This document shows positions 12,747 through 48,972 of a DNA stretch of 56,140 nt, piece by piece. The position numbers and the translations under genes were made by a program. The stretch is from an uncultured Piscirickettsiaceae bacterium (GTDB lineage Bacteria; Pseudomonadota; Gammaproteobacteria; GCF-002020875): positions 2,569 to 58,708 of the forward strand of contig CAZKCT010000004.1 of the NCBI GenBank assembly GCA_964551545.1, read 5' to 3'. Under the pieces are notes generated by a model, which saw only the letters and a list, made by a program, of their open reading frames with translations, had not been told where the DNA came from and ran no database searches. The first letter of the stretch is position 1, and each line of letters opens with the position of its first letter.

Positions 12747-12757
12747 TGTGACTCTCC

Positions 12758-19378: not shown

Positions 19379-19393
19379 CGCAGCAGGGAGTCT

Positions 19394-21916: not shown

Positions 21917-21931
21917 CGTTGGTTCAACCCG

Positions 21932-22894
21932 TTAAATGGCAAAGGTGTCCAGCGCCTTGTTGGTCGCTGCAATTTTCTGCTCGTCGGTGGCGTCATGGCC
22001 GACACTGGAGAGCTCGTCATAGCAGGGACGAGACGCATCCTGGTAGAGCAGGCCGACGGGGATGATTCCCTTGTCGGTCTCGTCACGGGCAATCGCCATC
22101 GCTTCATTGAAGTCAGAGGGGTCGTGCTCGCGGGTTTCCGGGAAGAGGCGGTCGATGCCGGGAGCGACCGGAATACCATTTTCATGTTGTAACAGTAGTA
22201 GACGGGAGCTGTCTTCCTGCAGCTCCTTGGTGATGCTGTCACTGAAGACCGGGCAACGCTGGATGACGCGGACAAAGCTACTCCCTTTGTGGGCGTGTGC
22301 AGCCTTGATTGTCTCGTAGAGCAGGGGTGGATTCCAGTCAACTACCTGGGCCACAAAGGAGGCGTTGGTGATCGCCATGGTGACCGTGTTGGGGTTCATC
22401 ATATCAATCGATGCCCCCTCTGGATGGGTGTTGGTGGGGAACTCCAGTGGTGTGGTTGGAGAGGTCTGCTTCTTGGTCAGTCCGTAGATCTGATTATCGA
22501 AGACCAATACGGTCATATCCATGTTGTAGCGAACCGCATGGATCCAGTGACCGGCACCGATGGAGTAGCAGTCACCATCACCGGTAGCGACCCAGACATC
22601 CAGATCGGGGCGGCGGGATTTTACACCGCAGGCGAGTGGCAGCGCGCGACCATGGATGCCATGCAGGCCGTAGGTGGCCATATAGTGGGGCATACGGCTG
22701 GAGCAGCCGATGCCGGAGACAAAGACACTCTTTTCGGGAGGGAGCTGTGCATCACGCAATACGCGGTGGGCGGTTGCCAGGACGGCGTGGTCACCACAAC
22801 CGTCACACCAGCGCGCCACGTTACCCTCGTAGTCATCGATGGTGAAGTAGCGCTCCTGAATGTCGAGAGACCAATCTGCCTTAATTCCAAACAT
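21932..22894 (-). CDS. korB: 2-oxoacid (probably 2-oxoglutarate):ferredoxin oxidoreductase beta subunit
   Basis: WCDGCGDH, SGIGCSSR, HGRALP, TPP motif GDGD...NQIYGLTKKQTSPT and QRCP. Confidence 0.9.
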   Translation of the reverse strand: MFGIKADWSLDIQERYFTIDDYEGNVARWCDGCGDHAVLATAHRVLRDAQLPPEKSVFVSGIGCSSRMPHYMATYGLHGIHGRALPLACGVKSRRPDLDVWVATGDGDCYSIGAGHWIHAVRYNMDMTVLVFDNQIYGLTKKQTSPTTPLEFPTNTHPEGASIDMMNPNTVTMAITNASFVAQVVDWNPPLLYETIKAAHAHKGSSFVRVIQRCPVFSDSITKELQEDSSRLLLLQHENGIPVAPGIDRLFPETREHDPSDFNEAMAIARDETDKGIIPVGLLYQDASRPCYDELSSVGHDATDEQKIAATNKALDTFAI

Positions 22895-22897
22895 AAC

Positions 22898-24772
22898 TTA
22901 TTCTCCTGTCTCGCTGTCGGTCAGTTGATCCAGGCGCTCTTGCAGCGCCCCCTCAATCAGGTCCGGTTGTAGCGGGTGACCATAGACTACAGACCAGCAA
23001 TCGACATCGACCAGGGTCTGTACACGCAGTACGGTAGCGAGCTGGCCGTAGCGACGGTTCTCATCGGTGACCATCGGTGCGTTGGGATCATCGCTATAGT
23101 TGACCTCCACCGTAATCACCTTGTTGAAGCGGGAGAAGATCTCCTTCAATCCCGGTTCTAGAGGAGAGAGGAAGCGTAGATGGATGGTAGAGACCTTGTT
23201 GCCTTTCTCACGCAGGTTATCGACCGCTTCGGTGATCGCGCCCCAAGTAGAACCCCAGCCGATGACTAGCATATCACCAGACTCATCCCCATGAATCTTG
23301 GGTGGGGTGAGGGTGCTCTGCAGTGTGCCCAGCTTTCGGCTGCGCATGGTGTGGCTATACTGGTTTTCAGCGGACTCATAAGAGACCTTGCTGTGTTTGG
23401 TATGAGAGAGACCAGTCATGATGTACTCACCCTTCGGCATACCCGGAATCGGACGCTGTGAGAGGCCGGTGTTCTCGTCCCACTCAAAGGGGGCTACATT
23501 GGTATCCCATTCTGACTGATCCAGTGGCGGTGCCATCATCTCGCGGGTGACATCAGGGCGTGCCCACGGCTGTACGCCGGTTGCCAGATTGGCATCGGTC
23601 AATACAATGACTGGGCCACGGAAGGTTTCGGCCAGTTTACGTGCAGTGACCACCATGCTGAAACACTCGGCAATGGTGGCAGCTGCCATGATGATTTTTG
23701 GAGCATCGCCCGGCATACCGTACAGAGAGGAGAGCAGATCCGCCTGCTCAATCTTAGTAGGCAGACCGGTAGAGGGGCCGCCACGCTGTACGTCGACAAT
23801 CACCAGTGGGATCTCGGCCATCACTGCCAGCGCGATATTCTCGGTCTTCAGCGCCATGCCAGGACCAGAGGTGATGGTGCAGGCGGTCTTGCCCGCGTAC
23901 GAGGCACCAATCGCAAAGGAGATTGCGGCAATCTCATCTTCCGCTTGATGAATGAAACCACCGGCTTCAGGATAGATTTCTGCCAGATAGTGGGTGGCAG
24001 AGGTGGCCGGGGTGATCGGATACATCGAGACCAGCTCCATGCCCGAGGCGAGGACACCGAGTCCGACCGCCTGGTTTCCGTTGGTGACCACCATCTTCTG
24101 TTGTCCCATCTCTTCTGCAGGGGGGATGTCAAAGAAGTATTCGGGAAGCTGTTCTCCGGCAAAGGCGTAACCAGCATCAAATAGATTTTGGTTGCTGGTG
24201 ATGATCGCCTCCTTCTTGCCGGCAAAGGTGAGGGCGATCTCATTGCGACCCAACTCTTTGTCTCGGTTGTAGATGCGGCAGAGCATCCCGAGTACGAACA
24301 TGTTTTTGCCCTTGCGGGGATCTTTCACCACCTTCAGGCAGGCCTCATGAATCGGCAATTCGTGAACGACCAGGCCGTGGTCACGGAACTCCTTCACAGC
24401 TTTGGCGTACATTTGTTGGATTTCTTCGGAGGCATCCGTGGCCCAGCGGTTATCCAGCAATACTACAGAGCCCTTCTTGTAGGCGCCGTTGGCGATGCGA
24501 GAGTAGAGTACCTGCTCGTTAAAGGCGACGACGAGATCGCCCTCATTGCCGACATTGGTGATGTATTTGGAGCCGAGACGAATACGGATGCCGCTGGCAC
24601 CAGACGGGGTGCGAGCGGGCGGCTGAATCTCGGCCGGAATAATCTCTACCGTCCAGACGCCGTTATTCATCTTGGAGCTGATATTTCCGAAAGTCTGGCC
24701 GCACTTCTGTGCGCCTTCGCCGGAGTCGCTAACGATCTCGACGATGTGTTCCTGAATGGTTGTTGGACTCAA
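22898..24772 (-). CDS. korA: 2-oxoacid (probably 2-oxoglutarate):ferredoxin oxidoreductase alpha subunit (gamma-alpha fusion)
   Basis: DSGEGAQ, YPITPAT, QAEDEIAA, TSGPG and QRGGPSTGLPTK. Start placed at TTG 24772 after GAGGGA. Substrate is inferred. Confidence 0.9.
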   Translation of the reverse strand: MSPTTIQEHIVEIVSDSGEGAQKCGQTFGNISSKMNNGVWTVEIIPAEIQPPARTPSGASGIRIRLGSKYITNVGNEGDLVVAFNEQVLYSRIANGAYKKGSVVLLDNRWATDASEEIQQMYAKAVKEFRDHGLVVHELPIHEACLKVVKDPRKGKNMFVLGMLCRIYNRDKELGRNEIALTFAGKKEAIITSNQNLFDAGYAFAGEQLPEYFFDIPPAEEMGQQKMVVTNGNQAVGLGVLASGMELVSMYPITPATSATHYLAEIYPEAGGFIHQAEDEIAAISFAIGASYAGKTACTITSGPGMALKTENIALAVMAEIPLVIVDVQRGGPSTGLPTKIEQADLLSSLYGMPGDAPKIIMAAATIAECFSMVVTARKLAETFRGPVIVLTDANLATGVQPWARPDVTREMMAPPLDQSEWDTNVAPFEWDENTGLSQRPIPGMPKGEYIMTGLSHTKHSKVSYESAENQYSHTMRSRKLGTLQSTLTPPKIHGDESGDMLVIGWGSTWGAITEAVDNLREKGNKVSTIHLRFLSPLEPGLKEIFSRFNKVITVEVNYSDDPNAPMVTDENRRYGQLATVLRVQTLVDVDCWSVVYGHPLQPDLIEGALQERLDQLTDSETGE

Positions 24773-24941
24773 AACAGTTCCCTCGTAGAACAAAAATTCC
24801 TTGTGTAGCCTGAGGTTCAGGCGGGTAATGACAGCCCTTAATAATCGCACTATTTGTGCGTAGAAATCAAGTTTTAGGGGATTTTGTGCTCTTCAGATGC
24901 CTGCAAAATGCCCGAAGTTTTGCTGTTTTTTGTGGAGTTTA

Positions 24942-32857: not shown

Positions 32858-33151
32858 CTAACAGCTCATATAATTACGGAATGAACCGAGATCGTGTACG
32901 TTCTCAAAGCCCATTGCCTCAAGATAGGTTTTTGCCATGCGGGTACGGGTCCCGGTGACACAATAGAGGATGATCGGGCGCCTTTTTTCGAGCAGGTCAT
33001 TGGCAACATGAATGGTCTGCAGAGGGACATTGACGGCATTAGGGAGTGAGCCCTGTGCGTACTCCATTGGGCTGCGAACGTCGACCAGCTGCCCGTTTTC
33101 CTCTTTCAGTAGCCGCTGCGCGTCTTCACAACTGATGTTTTGTGGAAACAT
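32858..33151 (-). CDS. Single-domain rhodanese (sulfurtransferase)
   Basis: LVDVRSPMEY, GSLPNAVNVP, active-site loop YCVTGTR and GFENVHDLG. Confidence 0.9.
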   Translation of the reverse strand: MFPQNISCEDAQRLLKEENGQLVDVRSPMEYAQGSLPNAVNVPLQTIHVANDLLEKRRPIILYCVTGTRTRMAKTYLEAMGFENVHDLGSFRNYMSC

Positions 33152-33290
33152 ACCAAATTAATCCTTTACTTTCTGAGTCTTTACTCGATTCGACTGAGGG
33201 TCGAGTTGGTGTCGTAGCACCAGAGCGGAGTGGTTCTATCAATCAAAATTATGGCGTGATTCTACCATATTCAACGGATTTATTCAATGC

Positions 33291-33389
33291 TTATCTTGAA
33301 TGGTTTTTGGTCGATTTTCGACCTCGGCGTAGCGCAATGATGATGCCGACTGCAAATAGCAGCGCAAGCAGGATGAATAGTTTTCCCAT
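33291..33389 (-). CDS. Possible 32-aa single-TM small protein
   Basis: MGKLFILLALLFAVGIIIALRRGRKSTKNHSR; starts just downstream of the previous stop and follows AGAGAG. Confidence 0.4.
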   Translation of the reverse strand: MGKLFILLALLFAVGIIIALRRGRKSTKNHSR

Positions 33390-33417
33390 CGCAGACTCTC
33401 TGGTTTTAAGTTTTGGT

Positions 33418-33789
33418 TTATTGGGTGATCGTGGTCGTTGGGATGGCAACTTTCTCGACCGGTCCCTCGTCTTGTTGTTCGGGTGGATCAATGTGCACCA
33501 GCTCGGAGTAGGGTCCAAGCATGGCGACCGACCCTTGATGGCGCTCGTCGCCATGATAGCTGTAATCGAACCGGTAGCTGCGGTGGAACTGCAGTCGTCC
33601 TCGGGGGTTTCTGCGCAGTCCGATCTTCTGCAGTGAAACGGTCTGATCGAGAAGCTGGGCACCAAAATTCTTGCAGGTAAGATTACAGACAGTAATGGCG
33701 CGCTCGCGGGCCTTCATCGAGTCGTACCAGAAGAGGGCGATACCCACCGGGGTGCCAATCATCAACAGAGTCTCGATCAGTTCGCGCAT
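33418..33789 (-). CDS. DUF3301-like membrane-anchored protein
   Basis: N-terminal TM helix, ARERA....C.....QLLDQTV and Y.FDYS..G.ER..G pattern; start at ATG 33789. Confidence 0.7.
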   Translation of the reverse strand: MRELIETLLMIGTPVGIALFWYDSMKARERAITVCNLTCKNFGAQLLDQTVSLQKIGLRRNPRGRLQFHRSYRFDYSYHGDERHQGSVAMLGPYSELVHIDPPEQQDEGPVEKVAIPTTTITQ

Positions 33790-33859
33790 AGCGGGCCACT
33801 CTAACAGATTCAAAGGGGGTGAACCATTTTCTGGTATGGTGTTTCCTGATGATTGAGAA

Positions 33860-33885
33860 GGAATAAAGCATCGTTGTGCGGATCA
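33860..33885 (+). promoter_or_regulatory. Candidate ECF-type promoter upstream of the sigma gene
   Basis: GGAATAA-N13-GGATCA; a similar element lies at 35733-35759. Confidence 0.35.
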
Positions 33886-33917
33886 GTATGAGGGAGTGAG
33901 AGGATGAGGGGAGATGT

Positions 33918-34496
33918 GTGAAAATTGTTGAGCTGTTTACAAAAAATCGAGAGCTGAAAGAGCGAATTGTTGGCTCAAGGGAGCGACTGTTTCGTCTGGC
34001 CTACTCATGGTGTCATGATCGTCATCATGCAGATGACCTCTGTCAGGAGACGGTGATTACTGCACTGGAGAAGGTGGATCAGCTCAAGTCAGAGGATGCA
34101 CTGGATGCCTGGATGTTTCGCATCATGCAGAACGCCTACCGAAAGCATTTTCGCAAGATGCGTCCCCAGGTCGATGTGGAGTCGCTCGAGGCTCATATGG
34201 AGAAAGAGGATCCTGCAGAGCGCGATATTGAGCGCGCAGAAGAGATTCTTCAGGTGCGTAGTGGTCTTGCTCAGCTCAAGGAGGGGCAGCGGATGATTAT
34301 CACCTTGGTCGACATTGAAGGGGTTAGTTACAAGGAGGCGGCAGAGATTCTAGAGATTCCTATTGGCACCGTGATGAGTCGGCTGGCAAGAGCACGAACA
34401 GCGCTGAGCCAATATATTGATCGGCGCGAAGCAAATCGTGAGACAGGGCGGGCGACGAAGGATGATCGCAGAGCCCATCTTAAAGTGATGAAGTAA
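33918..34496 (+). CDS. ECF (sigma-24-type) RNA polymerase sigma factor
   Basis: Region 2 ADDLCQET...AWMFRIMQN; region 4 EGVSYKEAAEILEIPIGTVMSRLARAR. Confidence 0.94.
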   Translation: MKIVELFTKNRELKERIVGSRERLFRLAYSWCHDRHHADDLCQETVITALEKVDQLKSEDALDAWMFRIMQNAYRKHFRKMRPQVDVESLEAHMEKEDPAERDIERAEEILQVRSGLAQLKEGQRMIITLVDIEGVSYKEAAEILEIPIGTVMSRLARARTALSQYIDRREANRETGRATKDDRRAHLKVMK

Positions 34497-34506
34497 CAGG
34501 ATGTAA

Positions 34507-35259
34507 ATGATGAAGCCATACGAAATTTCAGATGAGATCCTCAACGCCTTTATTGATGGCGAGATTGAGTCAGAAGAGAAGATTGAAATCTTGCGGCAGC
34601 TGGGTGGAAACCCGGAACTGACGCAACGAGCCTGTGAGCTGGTGCGAACCAAGGAGTTGGTCCGGGCCGCATACAAGTCTGCGCTCCCTGACCCAGTGGC
34701 TCAGGCTGCTCAACCACGACGTGCCTCCATGGGAGGAAAAAAGTGGGGCGCACTTGCCGCCTCCCTGCTTGTCGCTGTGGTTCTGTTAGGTGGAATGCAG
34801 AATACATCGCAGCAGACGACTGATCTGACTCAGATGGAGAGGATGGGAGATGGGTTTTCTCCCGTTGCATTTCAACAGGCGGAGCAGGCGGCAGCTCTGA
34901 GAATCGTATTTCATCTGACCTCCTCGGATCCACTGCGGATGGGGAAACTATTGGATGATGTCTCTTCACTGCTGGAGCAGACCCGTAACCTGGAGCAGCG
35001 CTCTGTGGTTGAGGTGATTGCCAACGGAGAGGGTCTCGGGATGTTCCGTTCAGATGTCAGTGGATTTGGTGAACAGATTCACGAGATGCGCGTGGAAAAT
35101 CCCAATTTGCGATTTGTGGCCTGCCAGCGAACGATTGATCAGTTGGAGTCTGAAGGGGTGGGTGAAATTCATCTGTTGCCGGATGTGGTCCGGGCAGGCT
35201 CTGGAATTTCACGCGTGATTCAGCGCCAGCAGCAGGGGTGGTCCTACATCCAGATCTGA
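34507..35259 (+). CDS. Transmembrane anti-sigma factor with a C-terminal DsrE/DsrF-like domain
   Basis: N-terminal LNAFIDGEI anti-sigma motif, one TM helix (WGALAASLLVAVVLLGG), then RIVFHL...VEVIANGEGL...FVACQRT...QQQGWSYIQI. Confidence 0.82.
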   Translation: MMKPYEISDEILNAFIDGEIESEEKIEILRQLGGNPELTQRACELVRTKELVRAAYKSALPDPVAQAAQPRRASMGGKKWGALAASLLVAVVLLGGMQNTSQQTTDLTQMERMGDGFSPVAFQQAEQAAALRIVFHLTSSDPLRMGKLLDDVSSLLEQTRNLEQRSVVEVIANGEGLGMFRSDVSGFGEQIHEMRVENPNLRFVACQRTIDQLESEGVGEIHLLPDVVRAGSGISRVIQRQQQGWSYIQI

Positions 35260-35263
35260 GCAG

Positions 35264-35716
35264 ATGCGGCTTCTCCTGTTCTTGTTGGCACTACTTGCTT
35301 CACCGCTGGAGTGGGCAGATGCTAGAGAGCAACCGGATGTGCTGGTGGCATACCACCTCAGTACGGCGGATGAGCATCGGCAGCAGATTGCGTTACTCAA
35401 TATAAAGAACCACCTTGAGGACCTGTATGAGCAGGGGAGGAGCTTCTCCATTAAGGTGGTACTGGATGGTGGTGGGGTTGCCTTATTGGTGCGTGCACAG
35501 CAGCAACTACGGATACAGCAGCAGCTGAAACGGCTGCGCTCGCAGGGGATCGACTTTCTGGTCGAGCGCCAGTCGCTACAAGAGGCGGATGCTGACTGGG
35601 GTGGATGGGAAGAGGCGTTGCGACTGGTAGAAGGAGAGCTGGTTGAGAGTAGCATTCTGGCGCTGGTGGCGTTGCAGCAACAGGGATATTCCTATATCCC
35701 TTATCCGGTCAAATAA
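35264..35716 (+). CDS. Secreted DsrE/DsrF-like protein without cysteine
   Basis: Signal peptide; VAYHL, LLNIKNHL, IKVVLDGGGV and LQQQGYSYI; VERQS replaces ACxxT. Confidence 0.75.
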   Translation: MRLLLFLLALLASPLEWADAREQPDVLVAYHLSTADEHRQQIALLNIKNHLEDLYEQGRSFSIKVVLDGGGVALLVRAQQQLRIQQQLKRLRSQGIDFLVERQSLQEADADWGGWEEALRLVEGELVESSILALVALQQQGYSYIPYPVK

Positions 35717-35732
35717 AAAGCCCCAATCGGGT

Positions 35733-35759
35733 GGAATAACCCAGTATGGTTGTGGGTCA
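35733..35759 (+). promoter_or_regulatory. Candidate ECF-type promoter upstream of cytochrome c/sox
   Basis: GGAATAA-N14-GGGTCA, resembling 33860-33885. Confidence 0.35.
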
Positions 35760-35840
35760 TAGTTTGAGTGATGTAGAATCGAGGGCCCCATCCGGGAATG
35801 GATGAAAGGGATTTTCAAACAGAAACACAGGAAGGAAAAG

Positions 35841-36158
35841 ATGAAAAAGAATTTGATGGTATTGGGTACTGTCGCGACAACGCTTTTTTCTGCAAATGTT
35901 TTTGCAGATGCGGCTGCGGACTACATGGGGGCATGCAATAGCTGCCACTTTAGTGCAGTTGCTCCTGCTTTGGGTGCCCCAGGTCTTGGTGACAAAGCGG
36001 CCTGGGCACCACGTATTGCCAAAGGGATGGATGCCCTTTATAACACCGCGATCAACGGTTCTACAGTGAATCCAGTGATGATGCCTCGTGGTGGGTCCGC
36101 TTTGAGTGATGATGCACTGAAGGCCGTGGTGGACTATATGGTCAACCAGTCCAAGTAA
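35841..36158 (+). CDS. Monoheme cytochrome c5/c-555-like protein, probable Sox electron acceptor
   Basis: Signal peptide, CNSCH, GAP..GDKAAWAPRIAKG and MMPRGG; start at ATG 35841. Confidence 0.9.
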   Translation: MKKNLMVLGTVATTLFSANVFADAAADYMGACNSCHFSAVAPALGAPGLGDKAAWAPRIAKGMDALYNTAINGSTVNPVMMPRGGSALSDDALKAVVDYMVNQSK

Positions 36159-36181
36159 GATCAGAAGAGCTGCATAGACCA

Positions 36182-36213
36182 TCAGCCCGGCAGAGAGGCC
36201 TCTGCCGGGCTGA
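36182..36213 (+). other. Perfect 14-bp stem-loop between cytochrome c and soxB
   Basis: TCAGCCCGGCAGAG-AGGC-CTCTGCCGGGCTGA, followed by an A-run rather than a T-run. Confidence 0.6.
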
Positions 36214-36294
36214 ATAAAAAAATAGAAAAATAATCAACGATAAAGGGACCGTAGCGAAGATTGCGGCCTAGGAAATCAAAGGAGAGTTGTGACA

Positions 36295-38082
36295 ATGTCA
36301 CTGAATCGACGTGAATTTATCCGTCTGATGGGGATGGCTGGTGCAGCGGGGCTGGTCCCTACGGCAGCACTGGCAGATCGAAACCCCGCAGAAGCGCTCT
36401 ATCGGCGTCCGATGAAAGGGAATGTGCGTATTCTGCACATCACGGATACTCACGCACAGCTGCTCCCGATCCATTTTCGTGAACCCAATGTCAATCTGGG
36501 ATTCGGCTATGGCTATGGCAAGGCGCCTCACGTTGTAGGAAAGCGCTTTCTGGATCACTTCGGGGTCCCGGCCAACAGCCACCAGAGCCACGCATTTACC
36601 TATCTTGATTTTGATGAGGCAGCGCGCCGCTACGGTAAGGTCGGTGGGTTTGCCCACATGAAGACGTTGGTTGACAGCCTGCGTAGTGAGGCGGGGGATG
36701 GCAATAGTCTATTGCTGGACGGTGGAGATACCTGGCAAGGTAGCGGAACCTCTTACAAAACTCGTGGCATGGATATGGTGAAGGCCTGTAATGAGCTGGG
36801 CGTCGATGTGATGACTGGCCACTGGGAATACACCTACCTCGATCACGAAGTACTGAAAAATGTGAATGCCTTCAATGGCGATTTTGTGGCGCAGAACGTG
36901 CGGGTCCGGGATGAGTCACTGTTTGATTACAACTACGCCGATTTTGATGGCTTTGATGAGGATAGCGGTCACGCCTTCAAACCTTACGTGATGAAAGAGG
37001 TGGGGGGCGCGCGCATTGCGGTGATTGGGCAGGCCTTCCCTTATACCCCGATCGCCAACCCGGGCCGCTTCATGCCGGACTGGACCTTCGGGATCAGTGA
37101 CGACACCATGCAAGAGCTGGTCGATGAGGTGCGTGAGAATGAGCGCCCTGATGCGGTGATCGTGCTCTCCCATAACGGCATGGATGTTGACCTGAAGATG
37201 GCCTCCGTGGTCTCTGGGATTGATGCGATTTTTGGCGGCCATACCCATGACGGGATGCCGGCCCCAACGTTGGTGAAGAATGCGGGCGGCAAGACCCTGG
37301 TGACCAATGCTGGCTCCAACGGCAAGTTCGTCGGGGTGATGGATTTTGTCATCCGTAATGGCAAGGTGCAGGATTTTGAGTACTCGCTGCTGCCAGTCTT
37401 CTCAAACCTGCTGGAGGCAGATGCGGGAATGAATCGCCTGATTGAGGAAGTTCGCCAACCGTATGGTGACTGGCTCAATGAGGAGTTGGCGGTCGCTGAT
37501 CAGTTGCTCTACCGTCGCGGAAACTTCAACGGCACCTTTGACCAGATTATCTGCGACTCTCTGAACACCCATTATGATTCCCAGATCTCTCTCTCTCCCG
37601 GCTTCCGCTGGGGAACCACAGTGATGGAGGGGCAGAAGATCACCATGGATAATGTCCTGGACCAGACCTGTATCACCTATCCAGAGACCTATAGCCGAGA
37701 GATGCGTGGTGCCGATATCAAGAATATTCTTGAGGATGTCTCTGATAATCTCTTTAATGCGGACCCTTACTACCAGCAGGGTGGAGACATGGTCCGTGTT
37801 GGTGGGCTGGATTACGTCTGTGATCCGATGGCATCGATGGGAAATCGGGTGAGTGAGATGACACTCGACAATGGAGAGAAGGTTGAGGCCAGCAAGATGT
37901 ACAAAGTCTCTGGCTGGGCGACCGTTGGATCGAAGTCTCCAGGCCCTGCAATCTGGGATGTTGTGGCCGGTTATCTGCGAGACCAGAAGGTGGCCTCCGT
38001 GAAGAAACTCAATGTTCCAGCGCTCAAAGGAGCAAAAGGAAATCCGGGGATTAACAATTACCCGGGGAATCTGGTAAGTTAG
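36295..38082 (+). CDS. soxB: SoxB thiosulfohydrolase
   Basis: Tat signal NRREF, HITDTHAQL, DGGDTWQGS, GHWE, LSHNG, GGHTHD and SPGFRWG; ATG 36295 (GTG 36289 alternative). Confidence 0.96.
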   Translation: MSLNRREFIRLMGMAGAAGLVPTAALADRNPAEALYRRPMKGNVRILHITDTHAQLLPIHFREPNVNLGFGYGYGKAPHVVGKRFLDHFGVPANSHQSHAFTYLDFDEAARRYGKVGGFAHMKTLVDSLRSEAGDGNSLLLDGGDTWQGSGTSYKTRGMDMVKACNELGVDVMTGHWEYTYLDHEVLKNVNAFNGDFVAQNVRVRDESLFDYNYADFDGFDEDSGHAFKPYVMKEVGGARIAVIGQAFPYTPIANPGRFMPDWTFGISDDTMQELVDEVRENERPDAVIVLSHNGMDVDLKMASVVSGIDAIFGGHTHDGMPAPTLVKNAGGKTLVTNAGSNGKFVGVMDFVIRNGKVQDFEYSLLPVFSNLLEADAGMNRLIEEVRQPYGDWLNEELAVADQLLYRRGNFNGTFDQIICDSLNTHYDSQISLSPGFRWGTTVMEGQKITMDNVLDQTCITYPETYSREMRGADIKNILEDVSDNLFNADPYYQQGGDMVRVGGLDYVCDPMASMGNRVSEMTLDNGEKVEASKMYKVSGWATVGSKSPGPAIWDVVAGYLRDQKVASVKKLNVPALKGAKGNPGINNYPGNLVS

Positions 38083-38161
38083 TACTGATAATAAAAAAAG
38101 GTAGAGAAGATCTGGAAAACAGACGCCTGCCAAAATAATCACCAACAAAGGAGAAAATAGA

Positions 38162-38974
38162 GTGACGAAACCACACCAAGCCTTGTCGGGGGTCTGTCTG
38201 ACACTCTCCCTGATGGCGGCCTCCGTCTCTGCGGTGGCCTCTGGACCGGGAAAGATTGAGCAGCAGAAAATGGAAGGGGCAATCGCTGCAGCCAAGGCTG
38301 CAATCAAGGGAGCTAAAAGTGTTGGCTTCGAGTGGCGAGACTCCGGAAAAATTCTGAAGCAGGCTGAGGTTGCAATGGCAGAGGGGAATGTCGACAAGGC
38401 ACTCTCATTGGCGGCTAAGGCGCAATTTCAGGGGGAAGCGGGACAGGCCCAAGCGGTCTCTCAGGCCAATGCCAGCCCCCGTTTTGAGACCATCATTCGC
38501 AACATCCACATCTATGAGCAAGAGATGGCAATGGCCAAATCGGCACAGAAGGTGGCAGCGGATGCGGGATTTGAGTGGCGAGACCTGGGGAAGGTGATCA
38601 AGAAGGCTGAGAAAGCTGCAGCCAAAGGTCAGCTGCCAAAGGCGATCAAGTTGGCCAAGAAAGCACACTTCCAGGGTGAGGCAGGACAGGCCCAAGCGAT
38701 TAACCAGGCCAGTGCAGCCCCTCGGTTTGATGCGATTATCGAGAAGATGAACGCATTTGATCAAGAGATTGCTGCTGCTGAGCAGGCTCGTAAAGGGGCG
38801 GCCAAGGTTGGTTTTGAGTGGCGTGACACCGGGAAGATGATCAAAAAGGCTCGGACGGCAGCGAATAGCAGCCACTACGACAAGGCGATCAAACTGGCCA
38901 AGAAGGCTCGCTTCCAGGGGGAGGCCGGACAGCAGCAGGCCAAAGGTCAGGCCAGTGCCGGTCCACGGTTTTAA
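38162..38974 (+). CDS. soxK: SoxK-like (SoxAX-binding) protein with three tandem 81-aa repeats
   Basis: Signal peptide; the GFEWRD...A.KA.FQGEAGQ.QA..QA.A.PRF unit occurs three times at exact 243-nt spacing (38324, 38567, 38810); lies in the sox operon. Confidence 0.75.
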   Translation: MTKPHQALSGVCLTLSLMAASVSAVASGPGKIEQQKMEGAIAAAKAAIKGAKSVGFEWRDSGKILKQAEVAMAEGNVDKALSLAAKAQFQGEAGQAQAVSQANASPRFETIIRNIHIYEQEMAMAKSAQKVAADAGFEWRDLGKVIKKAEKAAAKGQLPKAIKLAKKAHFQGEAGQAQAINQASAAPRFDAIIEKMNAFDQEIAAAEQARKGAAKVGFEWRDTGKMIKKARTAANSSHYDKAIKLAKKARFQGEAGQQQAKGQASAGPRF

Positions 38975-39016
38975 TTTCAGAATTCTAATAACAAGCGAAA
39001 AGCAGACAAAGGAGAA

Positions 39017-39385
39017 ATGGATATGAAGCTGATCAAACAAGCAATGGTCGGGGCAGTGATGACAGCCCTGTTGGTACCTGTTACCGCCTCTGCGGATGGC
39101 CATGGTGCAGACAAGGTAATTGAGGAGGGCAAGGCCATTGCCTTCAATAAAAAGAAGGGAAACTGCCTGGCATGCCACCGCATTGAGGGCGGCAAGATGG
39201 CAGGTGATATTGCACCGCCCATCCTGATGATGAAGATGCGTTATCCCAATAAGGCAGACCTGCGTGCGCAGATTTGGGATGCGACGGCAGTCAACCCTGA
39301 TACGGTGATGCCTCCATTTGGGCGTCACAAAGTGATGAGCGAATCAGAGATCGACAAGGTGACTGAATTTATTTACAGTCTGTAG
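39017..39385 (+). CDS. soxX: SoxX cytochrome c
   Basis: KKGNCLACH, G.IAPP and TVMPPFG. Confidence 0.94.
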   Translation: MDMKLIKQAMVGAVMTALLVPVTASADGHGADKVIEEGKAIAFNKKKGNCLACHRIEGGKMAGDIAPPILMMKMRYPNKADLRAQIWDATAVNPDTVMPPFGRHKVMSESEIDKVTEFIYSL

Positions 39386-39439
39386 TTCTTGCGGTAGACA
39401 AACCTAAAGAAAATATTATTTCAAAGAAGGAGAGCGATA

Positions 39440-39883
39440 GTGAAAAGACGGCTATTTATGAAGGGAACTCTTGCGGGTAGTGCAGTCACTGCAGCCCTGG
39501 GAGCGGGTCTGTTGGCACCTCGTGCAGTATTGGCAGCGTGGCCAAAGGCTGTCATGGAGTCCGATAACTTTGGGGACACTGGCATGGCCAGCGGCTCTGT
39601 AAAGATCAAGGCCCCTGAGATTGCAGAGAATGGTGCGGTTGTACCAGTTACTGTAGATGCAACAGGCGTAGACGGCATTGTTGAGAGCATCAGCATTGTA
39701 GCGGCAGCGAATGGTCGTCCTCTGGCGGCAACCTACAACATGGGTGAAGGCGCAGTTCCATTCGTCTCTACTCGACTGAAAATGGGTAAGACTGGTGATG
39801 TCTATGGTGTAGTGAAGACTGCATCTGGCCTGCTGAATGCAAAGTCTCAGGTTAAGGTCACCATCGGTGGTTGTGGCGGTTAG
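39440..39883 (+). CDS. soxY: SoxY sulfur carrier
   Basis: Tat RRLF, PEIAENGAVVPV and C-terminal VKVTIGGCGG. Confidence 0.97.
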   Translation: MKRRLFMKGTLAGSAVTAALGAGLLAPRAVLAAWPKAVMESDNFGDTGMASGSVKIKAPEIAENGAVVPVTVDATGVDGIVESISIVAAANGRPLAATYNMGEGAVPFVSTRLKMGKTGDVYGVVKTASGLLNAKSQVKVTIGGCGG

Positions 39884-39935
39884 TCCCGTTACTGAACGTT
39901 AATACCCCATTACAAAGAATAGAGAGGAAAAGAAA

Positions 39936-40250
39936 ATGGCAAAGAGTGCAGTAAAGCTGAGAGCCAAGGCAAAGAAAGGCGTCATCGATATCAAATGTCT
40001 GATGAGTCATCCAATGGAGACAGGTCTGAGAAAAGACAAGAAGACTGGACAGAAGATCCCTGAGCACTTCATCCAGAGCGTTGTTGTAGAGAAGAATGGC
40101 ACACCATTCATGCATGCAGACTTCAACTCAACCATTTCCAAAAACCCATACCTGAGAGTCAAGGTTGCAGGCGACAAGGGTGACAAGATCACCGTCACCT
40201 GGACTGATAACAAGGGTGAGTCTGGTAGCGGAACCAAGGCAGCAAAATAA
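39936..40250 (+). CDS. soxZ: SoxZ
   Basis: HPMETGLRKD, SKNPY and WTDNKG. Confidence 0.96.
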   Translation: MAKSAVKLRAKAKKGVIDIKCLMSHPMETGLRKDKKTGQKIPEHFIQSVVVEKNGTPFMHADFNSTISKNPYLRVKVAGDKGDKITVTWTDNKGESGSGTKAAK

Positions 40251-40262
40251 TAAGATTGCCGA

Positions 40263-40293
40263 ATAACCCCCTCCATAAAGGAGGGGGTGTTAT
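40263..40293 (+). other. Stem-loop between soxZ and soxA
   Basis: ACCCCCTCC-ATAAA-GGAGGGGGT, followed by an A-run. Confidence 0.5.
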
Positions 40294-40315
40294 AAAAAAA
40301 CCAAAGGAGAATAGT

Positions 40316-41173
40316 ATGAAGCAGTTTCTGATGGCTGTAACCGCGACTGCGCTTGCAATGGGGGGGATTGCGGGTGCACAGGCGAGCCCGGAAGAAGATC
40401 TGAAGGCTTTTCGTGCCTACTTTGTAGAGAAGTTCCCGAATACGGAATTTTCTGATTTCAGAAATGGTGTTTACTCCATTAACGAGAGTTTCCGCCAGCA
40501 GTGGGAAGCGATTGAGGAGTTCCCCCCTTATGAGCAATTTGTCGAGCAAGGTGAAGAGATATGGGGCACCCCTTTTGCGAACGGTAAAGGCTATGCGGAC
40601 TGCTTTGGCGATGATGTCTCTGCCATTCGTGCCCGCTATCCACACTGGGATGCCAAAAGCGAGCAGGTGGTGACGCTGGAGGGAGACATCAACAAGTGTC
40701 GTAAGGCCAATGGCGAGAAGCCACTGAAGTGGAAGAAAGGGGCGATGGCTCACCTCTCTGCCTACATCAGCTATGAGGCCCGTGGCCAGGTGATCAACGT
40801 GGTGATTCCTGATGACCCCAAGGCCAAGGCGGCCTATGAAGATGGTAAGCGCTTCTTCTATGCCAAGCGTGGGCAGCTCAATCTTGCCTGTGCAGATTGT
40901 CATGTCTACCAGTCTGGTCAGCACATCCGTGCCGATCTGCTCTCACCAGCGGTGGGCCAGTCTACAGGATTCCCTGTATTCCGTGCCAAGTGGTCCGGTA
41001 AAGACAAGAATGGTGATGGACTCGGTACATTGCACCGCCGCTATGGTGGCTGTAACAAACAGGTTCGCGCAAAGCCATTCAAGGCGCAGAGTGAGCAGTA
41101 TCGGAACCTGGAGTTCTTCCACACTTACATGAGTAATGGTCTGGAGTTCAATGGCCCATCCTATCGTAAGTGA
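40316..41173 (+). CDS. soxA: SoxA, monoheme type
   Basis: Signal peptide from ATG 40316; RGQLNLACADCH; active-site RRYGGCNKQVRA; a single CxxCH. Confidence 0.95.
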   Translation: MKQFLMAVTATALAMGGIAGAQASPEEDLKAFRAYFVEKFPNTEFSDFRNGVYSINESFRQQWEAIEEFPPYEQFVEQGEEIWGTPFANGKGYADCFGDDVSAIRARYPHWDAKSEQVVTLEGDINKCRKANGEKPLKWKKGAMAHLSAYISYEARGQVINVVIPDDPKAKAAYEDGKRFFYAKRGQLNLACADCHVYQSGQHIRADLLSPAVGQSTGFPVFRAKWSGKDKNGDGLGTLHRRYGGCNKQVRAKPFKAQSEQYRNLEFFHTYMSNGLEFNGPSYRK

Positions 41174-41190
41174 CCGATAGCAACTTCCTG

Positions 41191-41217
41191 AAAACCCGGT
41201 GACTTGCCGGGTTTTTT
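41191..41217 (+). terminator. Terminator after soxA
   Basis: AAAACCCGG-TGACTTG-CCGGGTTTTTT. Confidence 0.85.
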
Positions 41218-41433
41218 ATGTCTGTTACTTTTAGAGATGGCGAATAAATCGCAGTTAGCGTGAAGTGGGCATTGGCAGGAGGGAGAGGGGGGCGTTTGTT
41301 AAGGGTTGCCAGACATCTACCCCTAACTCCCTGCTATACCTGAAACGGATTTCTGTAAGGGCAGATGACCGGCAACCATTAACAGTAGTGCTCACTTAAG
41401 AATTGGGGCCAAGCGCGTGATACAGTAAGAGGT

Positions 41434-42105
41434 ATGTATCGACTACTACACCTCTTTCAAACTTCGATCGGGCGTAAGCTGATGATGGCCCTGAGTGGGT
41501 TGGTTCTGCTGCTGTTCATTGTGGGTCATCTGGCGGGTAATATGACCATCTTCTTCGGTGCACCGATCCTCAACAGTTACGCCCACTGGCTACAACACAG
41601 TGTGATGTTGTGGCCCTTCCGCTTGGTGATGTTGTCCCTGTTGGGGTTGCATATTGTGATGGGGATGGAGTTGGCACGTGAGAACCGACAGTCAGCTACC
41701 GCAGGCAGTCACTATCCTGGCTGGTTTACCCGCCATATTCGTAACCACCATATGGTCTGGAGTGGTGTCGCAGTACTGCTCTTTATTCTGTTTCATGTCG
41801 GGCATCTGACATTGGGGGTCGGAGCCGATGCCAGCTTCAGAGCGCTCGACAGCAACCAGATGGTTGATGTCTACCGGCGGGTGGTGGAGGGGTTTCGAAA
41901 CCCCTGGATCTCGGGCTTCTATGTCGTCTCCATGTTGTTGATCTGGACCCATTTGTTGCATGTGATTCGCGGCCTGTTTCAGACTCTGGGCTTCTATCAT
42001 GAAAACTATCTTCCGCTACTGGAGCGTGTTGCACAATTGTTGAGTGTGTTGATCGTGTGTGGGTTTCTCTCTATTCCGTTTTCCGTATGGCTGGGAGTGG
42101 TCTGA
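41434..42105 (+). CDS. sdhC: Succinate dehydrogenase/fumarate reductase cytochrome b anchor (single five-TM subunit)
   Basis: [27 protein letters not shown] and FQTLG motifs. Confidence 0.85.
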
Positions 42106-45041: not shown

Positions 45042-46370
45042 TTACAGCTTTTTGCCGTCGTTGAAAGCATCAGTAGAGATGTTCTCATACCAGCTCAGTG
45101 CATAGGCAACCTCACGCTCACGGAACTTCGCGTTGCGCTTGTCACCACTTGGAGTAAGACCACCAGAGACCTTCATCACCTTGGACTTGTCCGCTGCCAG
45201 CTGGTAAACCGCTGCAACAGAGAACGCGTCATTTGGTGCCACAACACTGTAGCAGGTGTTGGTGTAGGCAGGGATTGGTGCGCTGTTGCCATTCAGGGCA
45301 GCAACGACTGAAGCAGCACAGACTTTCGCCTCTGAAGCTGCAGCGTAGCCGGACTTCGGCAGACCCTTGGCAGCACTGGAATCACCAATGACGTGGATAT
45401 TTGCACGCTTCTTGGATTCGAAAGTCTGCAGATCAACTGGACACCAGTCACCATCCGTCAGGCCAGCAGCATGTGCAATGTTTCCTGCCTTCATGTCAGG
45501 GATAACGTTCAGTACGTCACCCTTGAACTCCTCGATGGAGCAGACAGCAGTGTTGCTGTCTGCCTCAACGGCCTCAATGGCACCGCCAGCAGCACCCTTG
45601 ACCCACTGGATCATGGAGCCTTCACCGCCGTCCTTTGCAGGATCGAAGCCGTAGTGGATCTTCCAAGCCTCACGGAACAGGCCGAACTTGGAGAACTTGT
45701 CCTTTGGATCAAGAACAATGATCTTGGATTTTGGCTTGTTGGCTTTGAGGTAGGAAGCGATCTGGCTAACACGCTCGTATGGTCCAGGAGGGCAGCGGAA
45801 TGGGTTGCGTGGCGCAGCGATGACGACTGTACCGCCATCCTTCATTGCCTTCAGCTGTTTACCCAGCAGATTCATCTGGTGACCAGATTTGTATGCGTGA
45901 GTGACAGAGTTGTTTGCAACCTCTTCACTGTGACCTTCAACGAATTTGAAGTCGACACCTGGAGAGACAACGCAACGGTCGAAGCCGTAGCTGCCGCCGC
46001 CCGCAGTCTTCACGCTGTTGTCACCAATCTCAGTCACTGCATCGTGAACGATATTGATGCCCATGGCCTGCAGACCCTCATAGGTGTGGGCCAGCTGATC
46101 CATAGTAACCATGCCAGAGAGGGTGAGGTTACTGGTGAAGCCAGTGTAGTAAGTCTTGTTTGGCTCGATGATGGTGACATCAATGGAGGCATCGCCACGC
46201 TTGATGTACTTGGCGGCAGTTGCGCCACCCAGACCACCACCAACGACAACAACACGTCCCTTGGAGCCCGCGAAAGAGCTGCTGGCAAAACCCATGCCTG
46301 CTGCAACAGAGGCGGCACCCAGTGCGCCACCGGATACCTTCATAAAGTCTCTACGATTGAACTTGCTCAT
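45042..46370 (-). CDS. fccB: Flavocytochrome c sulfide dehydrogenase, flavoprotein subunit
   Basis: Tat NRRDF, VVGGGLGGATAAKY, RCPPGPYER, PKSGYAA and NTCYS. Confidence 0.93.
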   Translation of the reverse strand: MSKFNRRDFMKVSGGALGAASVAAGMGFASSSFAGSKGRVVVVGGGLGGATAAKYIKRGDASIDVTIIEPNKTYYTGFTSNLTLSGMVTMDQLAHTYEGLQAMGINIVHDAVTEIGDNSVKTAGGGSYGFDRCVVSPGVDFKFVEGHSEEVANNSVTHAYKSGHQMNLLGKQLKAMKDGGTVVIAAPRNPFRCPPGPYERVSQIASYLKANKPKSKIIVLDPKDKFSKFGLFREAWKIHYGFDPAKDGGEGSMIQWVKGAAGGAIEAVEADSNTAVCSIEEFKGDVLNVIPDMKAGNIAHAAGLTDGDWCPVDLQTFESKKRANIHVIGDSSAAKGLPKSGYAAASEAKVCAASVVAALNGNSAPIPAYTNTCYSVVAPNDAFSVAAVYQLAADKSKVMKVSGGLTPSGDKRNAKFREREVAYALSWYENISTDAFNDGKKL

Positions 46371-46385
46371 TCTATTAGCTCCTCC

Positions 46386-46982
46386 TTAGCGCTGGCTGGC
46401 GTAGTAGTTGATGAGAGCTTCCTCACCCGCTGCGCCTGCCTTCTTGTTCAGTTTCTTCAGCTTCTTCTTCATCTTCTTCGGTACAGCACGGTCTCCACTG
46501 TGGAAGTCATCCATTGCGTAACGGAGGTAAGGAGCAAGCTGTCCGGAGAGCTGACCTGAATCATCGTCTGCAAGGGTGCCGCCTTCGCTGTGGCACTTCT
46601 CACAGTACTTATCATGCAGCTTCTGGCCCTTGGCAACCTGTGCCTCGTCGAAGCTTTGCTCTGACATGTGAACCTGCTGAGCTGCGAAATGAGATGCCAT
46701 TGCGGCAACCTCATCGTCACTGTAGCCCTTGGCGATACGAGTCATGATAGTGCTCTTGGTGTCGCCAGATTTGTAGGCAGCCATCATGTCGGTGATGTAA
46801 GTCTGAGACATACCGGCAAGTGACGGAATTGCAGGACCGCTACTGGCACCATCGGTACCGTGGCAACCTGCGCAAGTGTTGGCCAGCATAGTAGCACTGG
46901 CACCAGTCATGTTCCCTGCAAGTGCAGAAAAACTAAGCGCACATCCACCGATCACGGCCATTGCGAGTTTCGTTGGTTTCAT
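46386..46982 (-). CDS. fccA: Flavocytochrome c diheme cytochrome subunit
   Basis: Signal peptide, CAGCHG, STIM.RIAKGY and CEKCH; directly upstream of fccB. Confidence 0.92.
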   Translation of the reverse strand: MKPTKLAMAVIGGCALSFSALAGNMTGASATMLANTCAGCHGTDGASSGPAIPSLAGMSQTYITDMMAAYKSGDTKSTIMTRIAKGYSDDEVAAMASHFAAQQVHMSEQSFDEAQVAKGQKLHDKYCEKCHSEGGTLADDDSGQLSGQLAPYLRYAMDDFHSGDRAVPKKMKKKLKKLNKKAGAAGEEALINYYASQR

Positions 46983-47089
46983 ATCTCCTCCTAAGAATCT
47001 AGAGATGTTTTTTTTCGAAAATTAATATTAATTTTGCTCTTTGTTATGGCGTTCAGCACTAGGCAGAAAACCATACACAGAACAGGTCG

Positions 47090-47119
47090 ATCATATCTTG
47101 CTTATAACTTTTCATGCAA
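47090..47119 (-). promoter_or_regulatory. Candidate sigma70 promoter for fccAB
   Basis: Minus strand reads TTGCAT-N18-TATGAT, about 110 nt upstream of the fccA start. Confidence 0.35.
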
Positions 47120-47252
47120 GGAAAATATCAATAAAGCCAGGGTTTTTTGAAGGCGTGTGTTTGCGATGATCAGGCGAGTGTCTGGCGGGCGCAATAAAGG
47201 GGGCTCCACCCTTAAAAGCCAAGGGTGGGGGAGGAGGTTTGGGGGAGGTGGC

Positions 47253-48191
47253 TTACTGCCGGATGAGTGTTTTTAGATGTTTAGCCAGTTTGTGATGGCG
47301 GTTCATCTCTGCGATCAGTGCTAGATCGAGCCCCTCTTGGTCACGGACCTGGATGCTGGCACCACGTTCGATGAAGAGCTGTACCAGAGCACTGTTGCCT
47401 CGGCTGACAGCTTCCATCAATGGTGTCCAGCCATCTCGGTCTTGTGCATCCAGTGTGGCGCCATGACCGAGTAGCAGAGAGGCCGCCTTCGTTCCTTTTC
47501 TGGATACGGCATAGTGAAGGGCGGTTGCCCCATGATCATCTTTGACTTCAGTGGCTGCGCCACGTTGAAGCAGGGCAGTGAGGATTTCCAGGTTATTGTT
47601 GCCGGCTGCAATCATCATTGCCGTGCGTCCATTTTTGTCACGAATGTCGAGACCAGCATCGGCCAGCAACAGCATGTGAGCGACATTGATATTGTTGTGT
47701 TTGGTGGCAATCATCAATGCGGTCTGTCCGTGGCGGTCTGCGGTGTTGATGTTACTGTTGTAGGCCATCAGGATGGAGATGACATCGGCCTCACCGCTAC
47801 GAATTGCGATCATTAGGGCATCGAGTCCATTGCGGCTTTTGGTGTGTGGGTCGGCTCCTGCCTTCAGTAGCAGAGAGACTAAGGCAATGCTTCCTTCGTC
47901 AGCTGCAGCGGAGAGGGCAGTGTAGCCACCATCGGTCTGTTGGTTGATGCTGGCCCCATGGTCAATCAGCAGCTGAGCAATCTCCTGGTACCCATCTTCT
48001 GCGGCATAGATCAGTGGTGTGTGCCCCAATTTTCCTTGAGTGTTGGGGTTGGCACCCTGTAGCAGGAGCTGTTCACTCTGCTGCAGGTCTCCGTTGAGGA
48101 CTGCTTTTCGTAGTGCCTCATCCTGTGCTGGGTCAGCAATTACAGTGCTAGAAGAGAGAAGGGCAAGTAGCGCAATGGCTGTCTTTTTCAT
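47253..48191 (-). CDS. Secreted ankyrin-repeat protein (about 8 repeats)
   Basis: Signal peptide MKKTAIALLALLSSSTVIA from ATG 48191; repeated G.TPL/TAL..AA..G....V.LLL..GA units. Confidence 0.92.
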   Translation of the reverse strand: MKKTAIALLALLSSSTVIADPAQDEALRKAVLNGDLQQSEQLLLQGANPNTQGKLGHTPLIYAAEDGYQEIAQLLIDHGASINQQTDGGYTALSAAADEGSIALVSLLLKAGADPHTKSRNGLDALMIAIRSGEADVISILMAYNSNINTADRHGQTALMIATKHNNINVAHMLLLADAGLDIRDKNGRTAMMIAAGNNNLEILTALLQRGAATEVKDDHGATALHYAVSRKGTKAASLLLGHGATLDAQDRDGWTPLMEAVSRGNSALVQLFIERGASIQVRDQEGLDLALIAEMNRHHKLAKHLKTLIRQ

Positions 48192-48219
48192 GTCGTTGCT
48201 CCGTTGTCTAGCCATGTGA

Positions 48220-48918: not shown

Positions 48919-48972
48919 CGATGGTTCCTCCTGAAATATCGGTTACTGCGGTGAGTGAGTCATTTCCTGGGC

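Follow-up and report, generated by a model that had tools for sequence, protein, structure and literature searches.

How do chemolithotrophic sulfur oxidisers sense their substrates in the periplasm, and how does such a signal reach the sox genes? Periplasmic substrate sensing by these organisms is poorly known, and the main described mode of sox regulation is that by SoxR, an ArsR-type repressor which, unlike the system described here, is cytoplasmic. The question is raised by a three-gene module in a stretch of 56,140 nucleotides from an uncultured Piscirickettsiaceae bacterium (assembly GCA_964551545.1, contig CAZKCT010000004.1, positions 2,569 to 58,708 of the forward strand), referred to below as the window. 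The module encodes a sigma factor of the extracytoplasmic function (ECF) type, an anti-sigma factor that bears a DsrE-like domain and a secreted paralogue of this domain (the partner), directly upstream of a cytochrome c-sox unit. An earlier reading of the sequence (the original prediction) had proposed that sulfuration of a periplasmic Cys in the anti-sigma factor releases the sigma factor to transcribe sox. The analysis reported here points to an ECF26-like module in which a periplasmic MTH1491-type DsrE-like sensor is carried by the anti-sigma factor, Cys206 provides the read-out, and the output is the unit cytochrome c-soxB-SAXB-soxXYZA (SAXB, SoxAX-binding protein), a reading to which we give a probability of about 0.5. 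The in silico evidence gives good support to the architecture of the module and to the sigma factor's link with sox.

The three open reading frames, their gaps of 10 nt (sigma/anti-sigma) and 4 nt (anti-sigma/partner) and their co-orientation with cytochrome c-sox are all present where the original prediction had placed them. Its assignment of the first gene to the ECF sigma factors also holds, as the product contains sigma-2 and sigma-4 domains only (Pfam Sigma70_r2, 48 bits; r4_2, 59 bits) and scores 87.2 bits on the ECF superfamily model TIGR02937 (cut-off 42.9); the best NCBIfam match, PRK12511, is below its cut-off. The short gap to the second gene suggests a cognate anti-sigma factor, and the motif 5’ of the sigma gene a putative autoregulated promoter, both of which are characteristic of ECF systems. 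The sigma factor shows 34% identity (E 1.6e-25) with the pSymA rpoE6 locus (NC_003037; L119), the ECF26 relative used for comparison, which was identified by similarity and by two published RpoE6-dependent promoter strings. Furthermore, its best plasmid match lies in the divergent S8 serine-protease context reported for ECF26. With regard to the anti-sigma factor, the LNAFIDGE motif (residues 12-19), the single transmembrane helix and the C-terminal domain with the Cys of FVACQRT were each located in the sequence as foreseen. Residues 2-64 align with the product of the adjoining ecfR6 gene (32% identity, E 2.4e-6), and the C-terminal domain stays unaligned; the COG5662/RsiW-like periplasmic C-terminal domain that marks ECF26 anti-sigma factors was not found. 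The N-terminal domain shows no ZAS motif (H-x3-C-x2-C) and no match to the Pfam model zf-HC2, and contains a single Cys. This residue, Cys43 (34633-34635), is the sole Cys of the cytoplasmic domain and is present in 121 of 151 representative fusions even though the ZAS motif is missing.

The domain identities and the topology of the module were established in silico. Searches of the anti-sigma factor against Pfam and NCBIfam gave no match (Pfam E up to 0.1). Nevertheless, a profile of 21 anti-sigma homologues matched PDB entry 1L1S (MTH1491) with an E of 1.4e-18 and ST0148 with an E of 3.7e-6; the match to 1L1S spans positions 128-246 and aligns the Cys of the FxAC motif. The AlphaFold model of the anti-sigma factor has a mean predicted local distance difference test value of 82, exceeding 90 through the C-terminal domain, and superimposes in Foldseek on 1L1S (template modelling score 0.89, 30% identity) and on 2PD2 (0.85); further matches include the DsrE/DsrF-like entries 3PNX, 2QS7 and 3MC3. 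From profile and model, the C-terminal domain is predicted to be a member of the DsrE/DsrF-like superfamily, in its COG1416/MTH1491 branch. The DsrE domain claimed by the original prediction is thus upheld in its fold, with the qualification that it is a DsrE-like domain of the MTH1491/COG1416 type and not a canonical DsrE subunit of DsrEFH. MTH1491 and ST0148 (COG1416; 1L1S, 2PD2) share with it the fold, the motifs FH..., ..AC.NT and RQ..GW.YI, and the aligned Cys. Both are archaeal proteins, small, soluble and located in the cytoplasm, for which no function is known, whereas the domain in the window is predicted to be exported and is fused to an anti-sigma factor. MTH1491 is described as a homotrimer (PMC5495134).

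Each of the anti-sigma homologues carries one hydrophobic segment, around which Lys and Arg are unevenly distributed in 29 of 31 cases, with two to six of them among the 15 residues that precede the segment and none to two after it. A Sec-type signal was found at the N-terminus of all 26 partner proteins examined, two of which have a lipobox-like Cys. Both the positive-inside rule and the paralogy with a secreted partner therefore suggest that the DsrE-like domain of the anti-sigma factor is periplasmic, so that the expected topology withstood this check. In the AlphaFold model, Cys206 closes the strand 201-206 and precedes the helix 207-218. It is conserved in 32/32 genome-derived fusions and in 151/151 representative fusions that are mutually less than 50% identical, where it is among only three invariant positions of those tallied; W245 and D17 are likewise found in 151/151, Y247 in 150/151 and H136 in 137/151.

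The following course of events may be proposed. In the resting state, the sigma factor would be bound by the anti-sigma factor through the N-terminal domain of the latter in the cytoplasm. In the periplasm, a reduced sulfur species, probably a thiosulfonate derived from thiosulfate or tetrathionate, polysulfide, sulfane sulfur bound to SoxY, or sulfite, would be read at the invariant Cys206, most likely by covalent modification of this residue, and the secreted paralogue might serve as a modulator or an oligomer partner. The freed sigma factor would then transcribe from two promoters of the GGAATAA type, of which P1 would exert positive feedback on the sigma gene, possibly with read-through into sox, and P2 would drive the cytochrome c gene. 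In this scheme we infer the identity of the signal, the chemistry at the Cys, the role of the partner and the mechanism of release. Sulfuration of Cys206 appears a plausible sensing chemistry, the support for it being the invariance of this residue among the 151 representatives. That an ECF anti-sigma factor has taken on a DsrE-like sulfur-carrier fold as its extracytoplasmic receptor, and that sulfuration of one periplasmic Cys directly sets Sox transcription, is put forward tentatively.

The same module and the same Sox regulon could also respond to another signal, such as sulfite, the thiol-disulfide redox state or a ligand bound non-covalently, with the Cys in a structural or binding role. 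We consider this rather unlikely, although ECF26 relatives offer a precedent: RpoE1 and RpoE4 of S. meliloti are reported to be activated by sulfite-generating compounds and to drive sorT, a cytochrome c and pseudoazurin (PMC3511301), and the promoter consensus is common to both systems. Moreover, D17, W245, Y247 and H136 are nearly as conserved as the Cys, or equally so, and partners outside the close relatives of the window (group A, see below) retain their own Cys, which would permit intermolecular disulfides. Since the group A partner lacks a Cys, however, a disulfide between partner and sensor cannot serve as the general mechanism. Characterised ECF26 anti-sigma factors also have a different periplasmic domain, similarity to EcfR6 being confined to the N-terminal residues, and the Cys chemistry of the DsrE family is that of sulfur carriage, its Cys residues being able to carry thiosulfonate (PMC4175335).

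The extent of the fusion family bears on whether the DsrE-like domain is a sensor at all. A profile search of 1.84 billion representative proteins returned 2818 proteins at E <= 0.001 and 491 at E <= 1e-30; the best 150 of these 491 are all full-length fusions of 228-303 amino acids, so that the family comprises at least 150 clusters at 50% identity. An earlier word-based homologue search had found 22 proteins only and underestimated it. In the locus survey, which took one genome per species, 31 loci contained a full-length fusion, all from metagenome-assembled genomes (MAGs). Their host labels are nearly all gammaproteobacterial (Piscirickettsiaceae, Acidiferrobacterales, Chromatiaceae, Thiotrichales and Ca. 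Muproteobacteria), with one ‘beta proteobacterium’ and one label that reads merely ‘Proteobacteria’. The sigma gene lies directly 5’ of the fusion gene in 30/31 loci, the exception being a contig edge, and 28/31 have a gene for a secreted DsrE-like partner. Antisense and over-extended open reading frames called in high-GC loci, among them supposed anti-sigma frames of 409-503 amino acids that overlap the sigma gene in another frame, were discarded as artefacts of the caller and not taken for sigma-anti-sigma fusions. Three distant loci (L011, L014, L033) have a second ECF sigma gene 3’ of the partner gene, which is more distant in sequence (31-33% identity).

The window and its eight close relatives, whose anti-sigma factors are 54-68% identical, form group A. 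In the window, the partner passes the Pfam DsrE model narrowly (24.1 bits, cut-off 22.7) and is a paralogue of the anti-sigma C-terminal domain (21% identity, E 2e-6). It has a signal-peptide-like N-terminus and a Glu in the Cys column. This column holds Glu, Gly or Ala in 9/9 close loci and Cys in all 17 other partners aligned; among 21 partner sequences of other clades, 20 have the Cys and one is unreadable. The description of the partner as Cys-less is therefore accurate for the window and its close relatives and does not extend to the rest of the family. Since the partners of other clades retain the Cys, its loss is a derived feature of the sox-adjacent clade. A complex prediction for the anti-sigma C-terminal domain and the mature partner gave a score of 0.02 against a mark of 0.32, which is no verdict for or against binding.

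It is improbable that the DsrE-like domain acts mainly as a membrane-tethered carrier or enzyme of Sox sulfur together with its paralogue, the sigma factor being released by generic regulated proteolysis upon envelope or growth-phase cues. Such a role would agree with the secreted stand-alone DsrE-like genes (VVACENT/VIACENT) found directly beside soxB in six Burkholderiales or betaproteobacterial MAG loci (L037, L038, L041, L057, L060 and L061), and with a periplasmic DsrE-like gene of a sox operon that has been discussed as a sulfurtransferase (PMC9371685). In addition, the partner gene of clade C has its own ECF promoter and thus looks like an output of the regulon. Against this, its fusion with an anti-sigma domain persists throughout the clusters counted above, which is hard to explain unless the state of the domain is coupled to sigma release, and most fusion loci lie outside sox clusters. 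The Cys motif is present in 47/48 stand-alone secreted DsrE-like proteins.

The regulatory link between a sensor of this kind and sox rests on promoters, whose conservation and association with sox were also established in silico. Upstream of the sigma gene, a -35 element GGAATA(A/T) occurs in 8/9 close loci. At P2, a block of about 30 nt from TGGAATAAC to GGGTC is conserved in 8/9 of them, and the remainder of the intergenic region is unalignable. In distant loci, GGAATA-N15-19-[CG][GA]TC precedes the sigma gene in 20/22, mostly as GGAATAAA...CGTCT, and the motif is also found 5’ of the partner gene in clade C and in locus L027. The resulting family consensus GGAATAA-N14-16-CGTCT equals the published ECF26 consensus of -35 GGAAT(A) and -10 CGTC or GT: the elements are given as -35 GGAAT and -10 CGTC in one source (PMC6527743), and as a cross-species form of -35 GGAATA and -10 GT, with GGAATAA-N15-CGTCT at the rpoE4 promoter, in another (PMC6180224).

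The close loci have the same arrangement of sigma, anti-sigma, partner, cytochrome c and soxB genes and those beyond; the cytochrome c gene is conserved in 8/8 of them by tblastn, and all nine are adjacent to sox. In L030, soxYZ lies directly 3’ of a divergent anti-sigma gene. Beyond group A, the strict motif GGAATAA-N14-16-CGTCT had 35 matches in 20 distant genomes compared with 7 for the reversed control. Thirteen of the 35 lie before the sigma gene, two before the partner gene and 20 elsewhere, and the last group includes five at 39-203 nt 5’ of soxB and one at 76 nt 5’ of soxY, the gene identities being confirmed with NCBIfam. A relaxed form of the motif was found within 450 nt 5’ of soxB in 11/22 regions of distant genomes, in which the module does not adjoin sox, compared with one for the reverse complement, none for the reversed motif, none inside the gene and a mean of 0.51 for shuffles. 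The remaining strict matches include sites 5’ of a second secreted DsrE-like gene, of periplasmic thioredoxin-like proteins in two genomes and of a SoxH-related metallohydrolase. The thioredoxin-like proteins (L109:1536-3026 and L110:485-1975) are secreted, have a length of about 500 amino acids or more and a CxxC motif, match NCBIfam weakly and are preceded by the strict motif at 7-8 nt; they are possible further members of the regulon. The SoxH-related protein (L116:511-1458, minus strand) is secreted and of metallo-beta-lactamase fold, and the extra DsrE-like protein (L117:1587-2009, plus strand) is secreted and Cys-bearing.

Contiguous RNA coverage from P1 to the terminator completes the in silico evidence. 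The region is contained in two seawater metatranscriptome runs, X5 and X6, which appear to report RNA since their depth is strongly uneven. In X5, a single contig of 7387 nt and depth 90 covers 33897-41282, the flanking contigs having a depth of 4.8 or less; it begins 12 nt past the -10 element of P1 and ends about 60 nt past the terminator, where the depth falls from 90 to below 3. The X6 contig begins at 33914, and those of two further data sets, X7 and X8, at 33871 and 33867; a piece of X8 (35767-36326, depth 37) begins 9 nt past P2. We infer transcription from P1, to which these contig starts lend weak support. On the plus strand of 33000-39350, neither a sigma-70-like promoter nor a terminator was predicted. 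The proposal that the sigma factor drives sox is thus backed by the ECF-type motif in front of both the sigma gene and cytochrome c-sox, by the family motif before distant soxB and soxY genes, and by the contig that runs from P1 to the terminator; the association of the fusion with sulfur genes, for which a survey had been suggested, is seen in the sox adjacency of all close loci and in the presence of SoxB in 21/23 distant fusion genomes. That the module merely neighbours sox, regulating itself and at most the small cytochrome c while sox is regulated separately, is very improbable: it would account for the strong hairpin between the cytochrome c gene and soxB, for the cytochrome c segment being deeper than its neighbours in X7 and X8 and for the lack of a GGAATAA motif in the cytochrome c-soxB spacer, but the hairpin has no U-tract and no terminator was called before 41190, the X5 RNA contig keeps its depth of 90 without a break through soxA, and distant genomes carry the family motif immediately in front of soxB or soxY.

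Several observations weigh against an ECF26-like module with a DsrE-like sensor and a Sox output. The Pfam DsrE model (PF02635) has no match on the C-terminal domain of the anti-sigma factor. The -10 elements in the window and group A are GATCA and GGTCA instead of the CGTCT of the family, and the promoter assignment in this group therefore rests on conservation. In the organism’s own genome, the loose pattern GGAATAA-N14-17-[AG]TCA has 12 matches compared with a rough chance estimate of about 8, and none but the two local ones has a suitable position; these matches were accordingly dropped as a definition of the regulon. The close loci share wider synteny and hence represent one lineage, and the other 22/31 loci have no sox gene within 10 kb, except that L014 has a SAXB-like gene at a distance of 5 kb. 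In the two distant sub-groups examined, the conserved neighbours are housekeeping genes (purM, purN, NAD synthase, BamD-like and others). Position alone is therefore weak support for a link to sox. The relaxed motif is absent from 11/22 distant soxB upstream regions, including all five of clade C, and the presence of SoxB is not an independent association because all the genomes concerned belong to sulfur oxidisers. Finally, X7 and X8 may be DNA, and the Logan contigs prove neither a transcript start nor a single transcript, which makes the RNA data a weak hint.

The original prediction knew of no characterised example of such a mechanism. This needs to be narrowed, since ECF26 pairs are already known for a response to sulfite and for the control of periplasmic sulfite dehydrogenase together with a cytochrome c (PMC3511301, PMC6527743, PMC6180224); what is new is the DsrE-like sensor domain and the Sox regulon. 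The characterised pairs RpoE4-EcfR4, RpoE1-EcfR1 and SigE resemble the window module in that the genes of an ECF sigma factor and a single-pass anti-sigma factor are transcribed together, an autoregulatory GGAATA(A)...CGTC promoter is present, and the target is a periplasmic sulfur-oxidising enzyme with a c-type cytochrome encoded just downstream. According to these studies, the pairs are induced by thiosulfate, taurine or sulfite (PMC3511301, PMC6527743, PMC6180224), SigE of Starkeya novella drives sorAB (PMC6527743), and the activation mechanism, including the sensing step, is still presented as hypothetical (PMC6180224). They differ from the window module in their periplasmic domain, which is of the COG5662/RsiW type and not DsrE-like with an invariant Cys, in their regulon (sorT or sorAB as opposed to Sox), in their alpha- and betaproteobacterial hosts as opposed to gammaproteobacterial sulfur oxidisers, and in having no secreted paralogue of the sensor.

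DsrEFH and TusBCD belong to the same superfamily as the sensor and combine paralogous subunits, only some of which have an active Cys. This mixture resembles the Cys-bearing sensor and Cys-less partner of group A. Unlike the window module, they are cytoplasmic hetero-hexamers that pass sulfur to DsrC or TusE and have no transcriptional role, and the Foldseek similarity of the anti-sigma model to 2HY5 is weak (E 0.077). RseA-RseB-sigmaE also unites a single-pass anti-sigma factor with a secreted protein of the same operon; it has no sequence or fold relation to the window module and serves as an analogy for the possible modulating role of the partner only, whose binding to the sensor is hypothetical here. 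In Arcobacter butzleri, mutants of the ECF factors sigma2 and sigma7 show altered sox transcript levels and Sox activity, and the available text of that study describes neither a sulfur sensor domain nor a sox promoter motif (PMC3445524). A periplasmic DsrE-like gene within a sox operon has been noted previously (PMC9371685). The open-access literature searched contained no description of an anti-sigma/DsrE-like fusion or of a gammaproteobacterial ECF promoter before sox.

The organism’s genome (2.0 Mb, 98% complete) contains two ECF-sized sigma genes and four longer frames of 240-609 amino acids, which are taken to be larger genes of the sigma-70 family. With only two ECF-sized sigma genes, and with dsr genes in the same window, the module is likely to be a principal regulator of sulfur metabolism in its host. 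It offers a concrete candidate receptor, with one domain, one Cys and two promoters, a defined output and signs of in situ expression in seawater metatranscriptomes, and suggests a function for exported DsrE-like proteins of the MTH1491 type, which form a large and uncharacterised family. If the proposal is true, it would describe the main Sox regulator in lineages without a described one and the first function for exported COG1416 proteins, and would provide a compact sulfur-responsive switch that could be transferred to reporter strains.

Table 1. Positions of the module, its candidate promoters and the downstream unit (window coordinates; residues are those of the anti-sigma factor).
Feature	Position	Strand	Basis and remarks
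Candidate autoregulatory ECF promoter P1	33860-33885	+	GGAATAAA, spacer, GGATCA; 33 nt 5’ of the sigma start codon
ECF (group IV) sigma factor gene, ECF26-like	33918-34496	+	192 aa (amino acids); Pfam, TIGR02937
Single-pass anti-sigma factor gene	34507-35259	+	250 aa; profile, AlphaFold model, topology
Predicted cytoplasmic anti-sigma domain	residues 1 to ~60	+	EcfR6 alignment, topology
Predicted transmembrane segment	34744-34800 (residues ~80-98)	+	hydrophobicity
Predicted periplasmic DsrE-like domain	34888-35256 (residues 128-250)	+	profile, fold, topology
Cys206 codon	35122-35124	+	within FVACQRT, residues 203-209
Secreted Cys-less DsrE-like paralogue (partner) gene	35264-35716	+	150 aa; Pfam DsrE, paralogy
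Candidate ECF promoter P2, 5’ of the cytochrome c gene	35733-35758	+	GGAATAA, N16, GTC
Small secreted c-type cytochrome gene	35802-36158	+	Pfam Cytochrome_CBB3, Cytochrom_C; likely true start ATG 35823
GC-rich 14-bp hairpin without U-tract, cytochrome c/soxB spacer	36182-36213	+	z -4.9
soxB (thiosulfohydrolase)	36289-38082	+	TIGR04486, 843 bits (cut-off 550)
SAXB/SoxK gene	38162-38974	+	NF052674, 181 bits, 3 stretches
soxX	39017-39385	+	TIGR04485, 88 bits
soxY (C-terminal GGCGG)	39440-39883	+	Pfam SoxY, 96 bits; TIGR04488, 120.7 bits, just below cut-off 125
soxZ	39936-40250	+	TIGR04490, 125 bits
soxA	40256-41173	+	TIGR04484, 236 bits
Intrinsic terminator closing the unit	about 41190-41226	+	sole plus-strand terminator-like site in 33000-41600

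The downstream unit encodes the full set by which a Sox system is recognised, namely SoxB, SoxX, SoxA, SoxY with GGCGG, and SoxZ. No soxCD genes were found in the sox cluster, to which the search for them was confined. The SAXB/SoxK protein carries three tandem SAXB domains within its 270 amino acids, and close relatives show two to three repeat matches.

The window also contains a dsr-type gene set at 288-8465 (plus strand), which continues at contig positions 1200-2014 just 5’ of the window. It encodes a DsrM-like nitrate-reductase-gamma protein, Fe-S proteins, a DsrL-like flavoprotein, a DsrO-like ferredoxin, a DsrP-like NrfD and an amidotransferase of the CobB/CobQ type; two canonical DsrE-family genes lie just 5’ of the window. 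In this organism, rDsr thus occurs together with a Sox cluster that has no soxCD nearby and with a flavocytochrome c. The flavoprotein of this flavocytochrome c sulfide dehydrogenase is encoded near a 359-amino-acid ankyrin-repeat protein and a dihaem-like cytochrome c at 45042-49647 (minus strand). A large cluster of genes resembling those of pyruvate/2-oxoacid:ferredoxin oxidoreductase occupies 10528-24850 (minus strand) and includes, besides an RnfC-like protein, a 1487-amino-acid open reading frame that has POR_N and ferredoxin domains. Divergent genes for a single-domain rhodanese (32858-33151, minus strand) and a DUF3301 protein (33418-33813, minus strand) are located just 5’ of the sigma gene, and this pair is found at the same place, after panBCD, in six to eight close loci.

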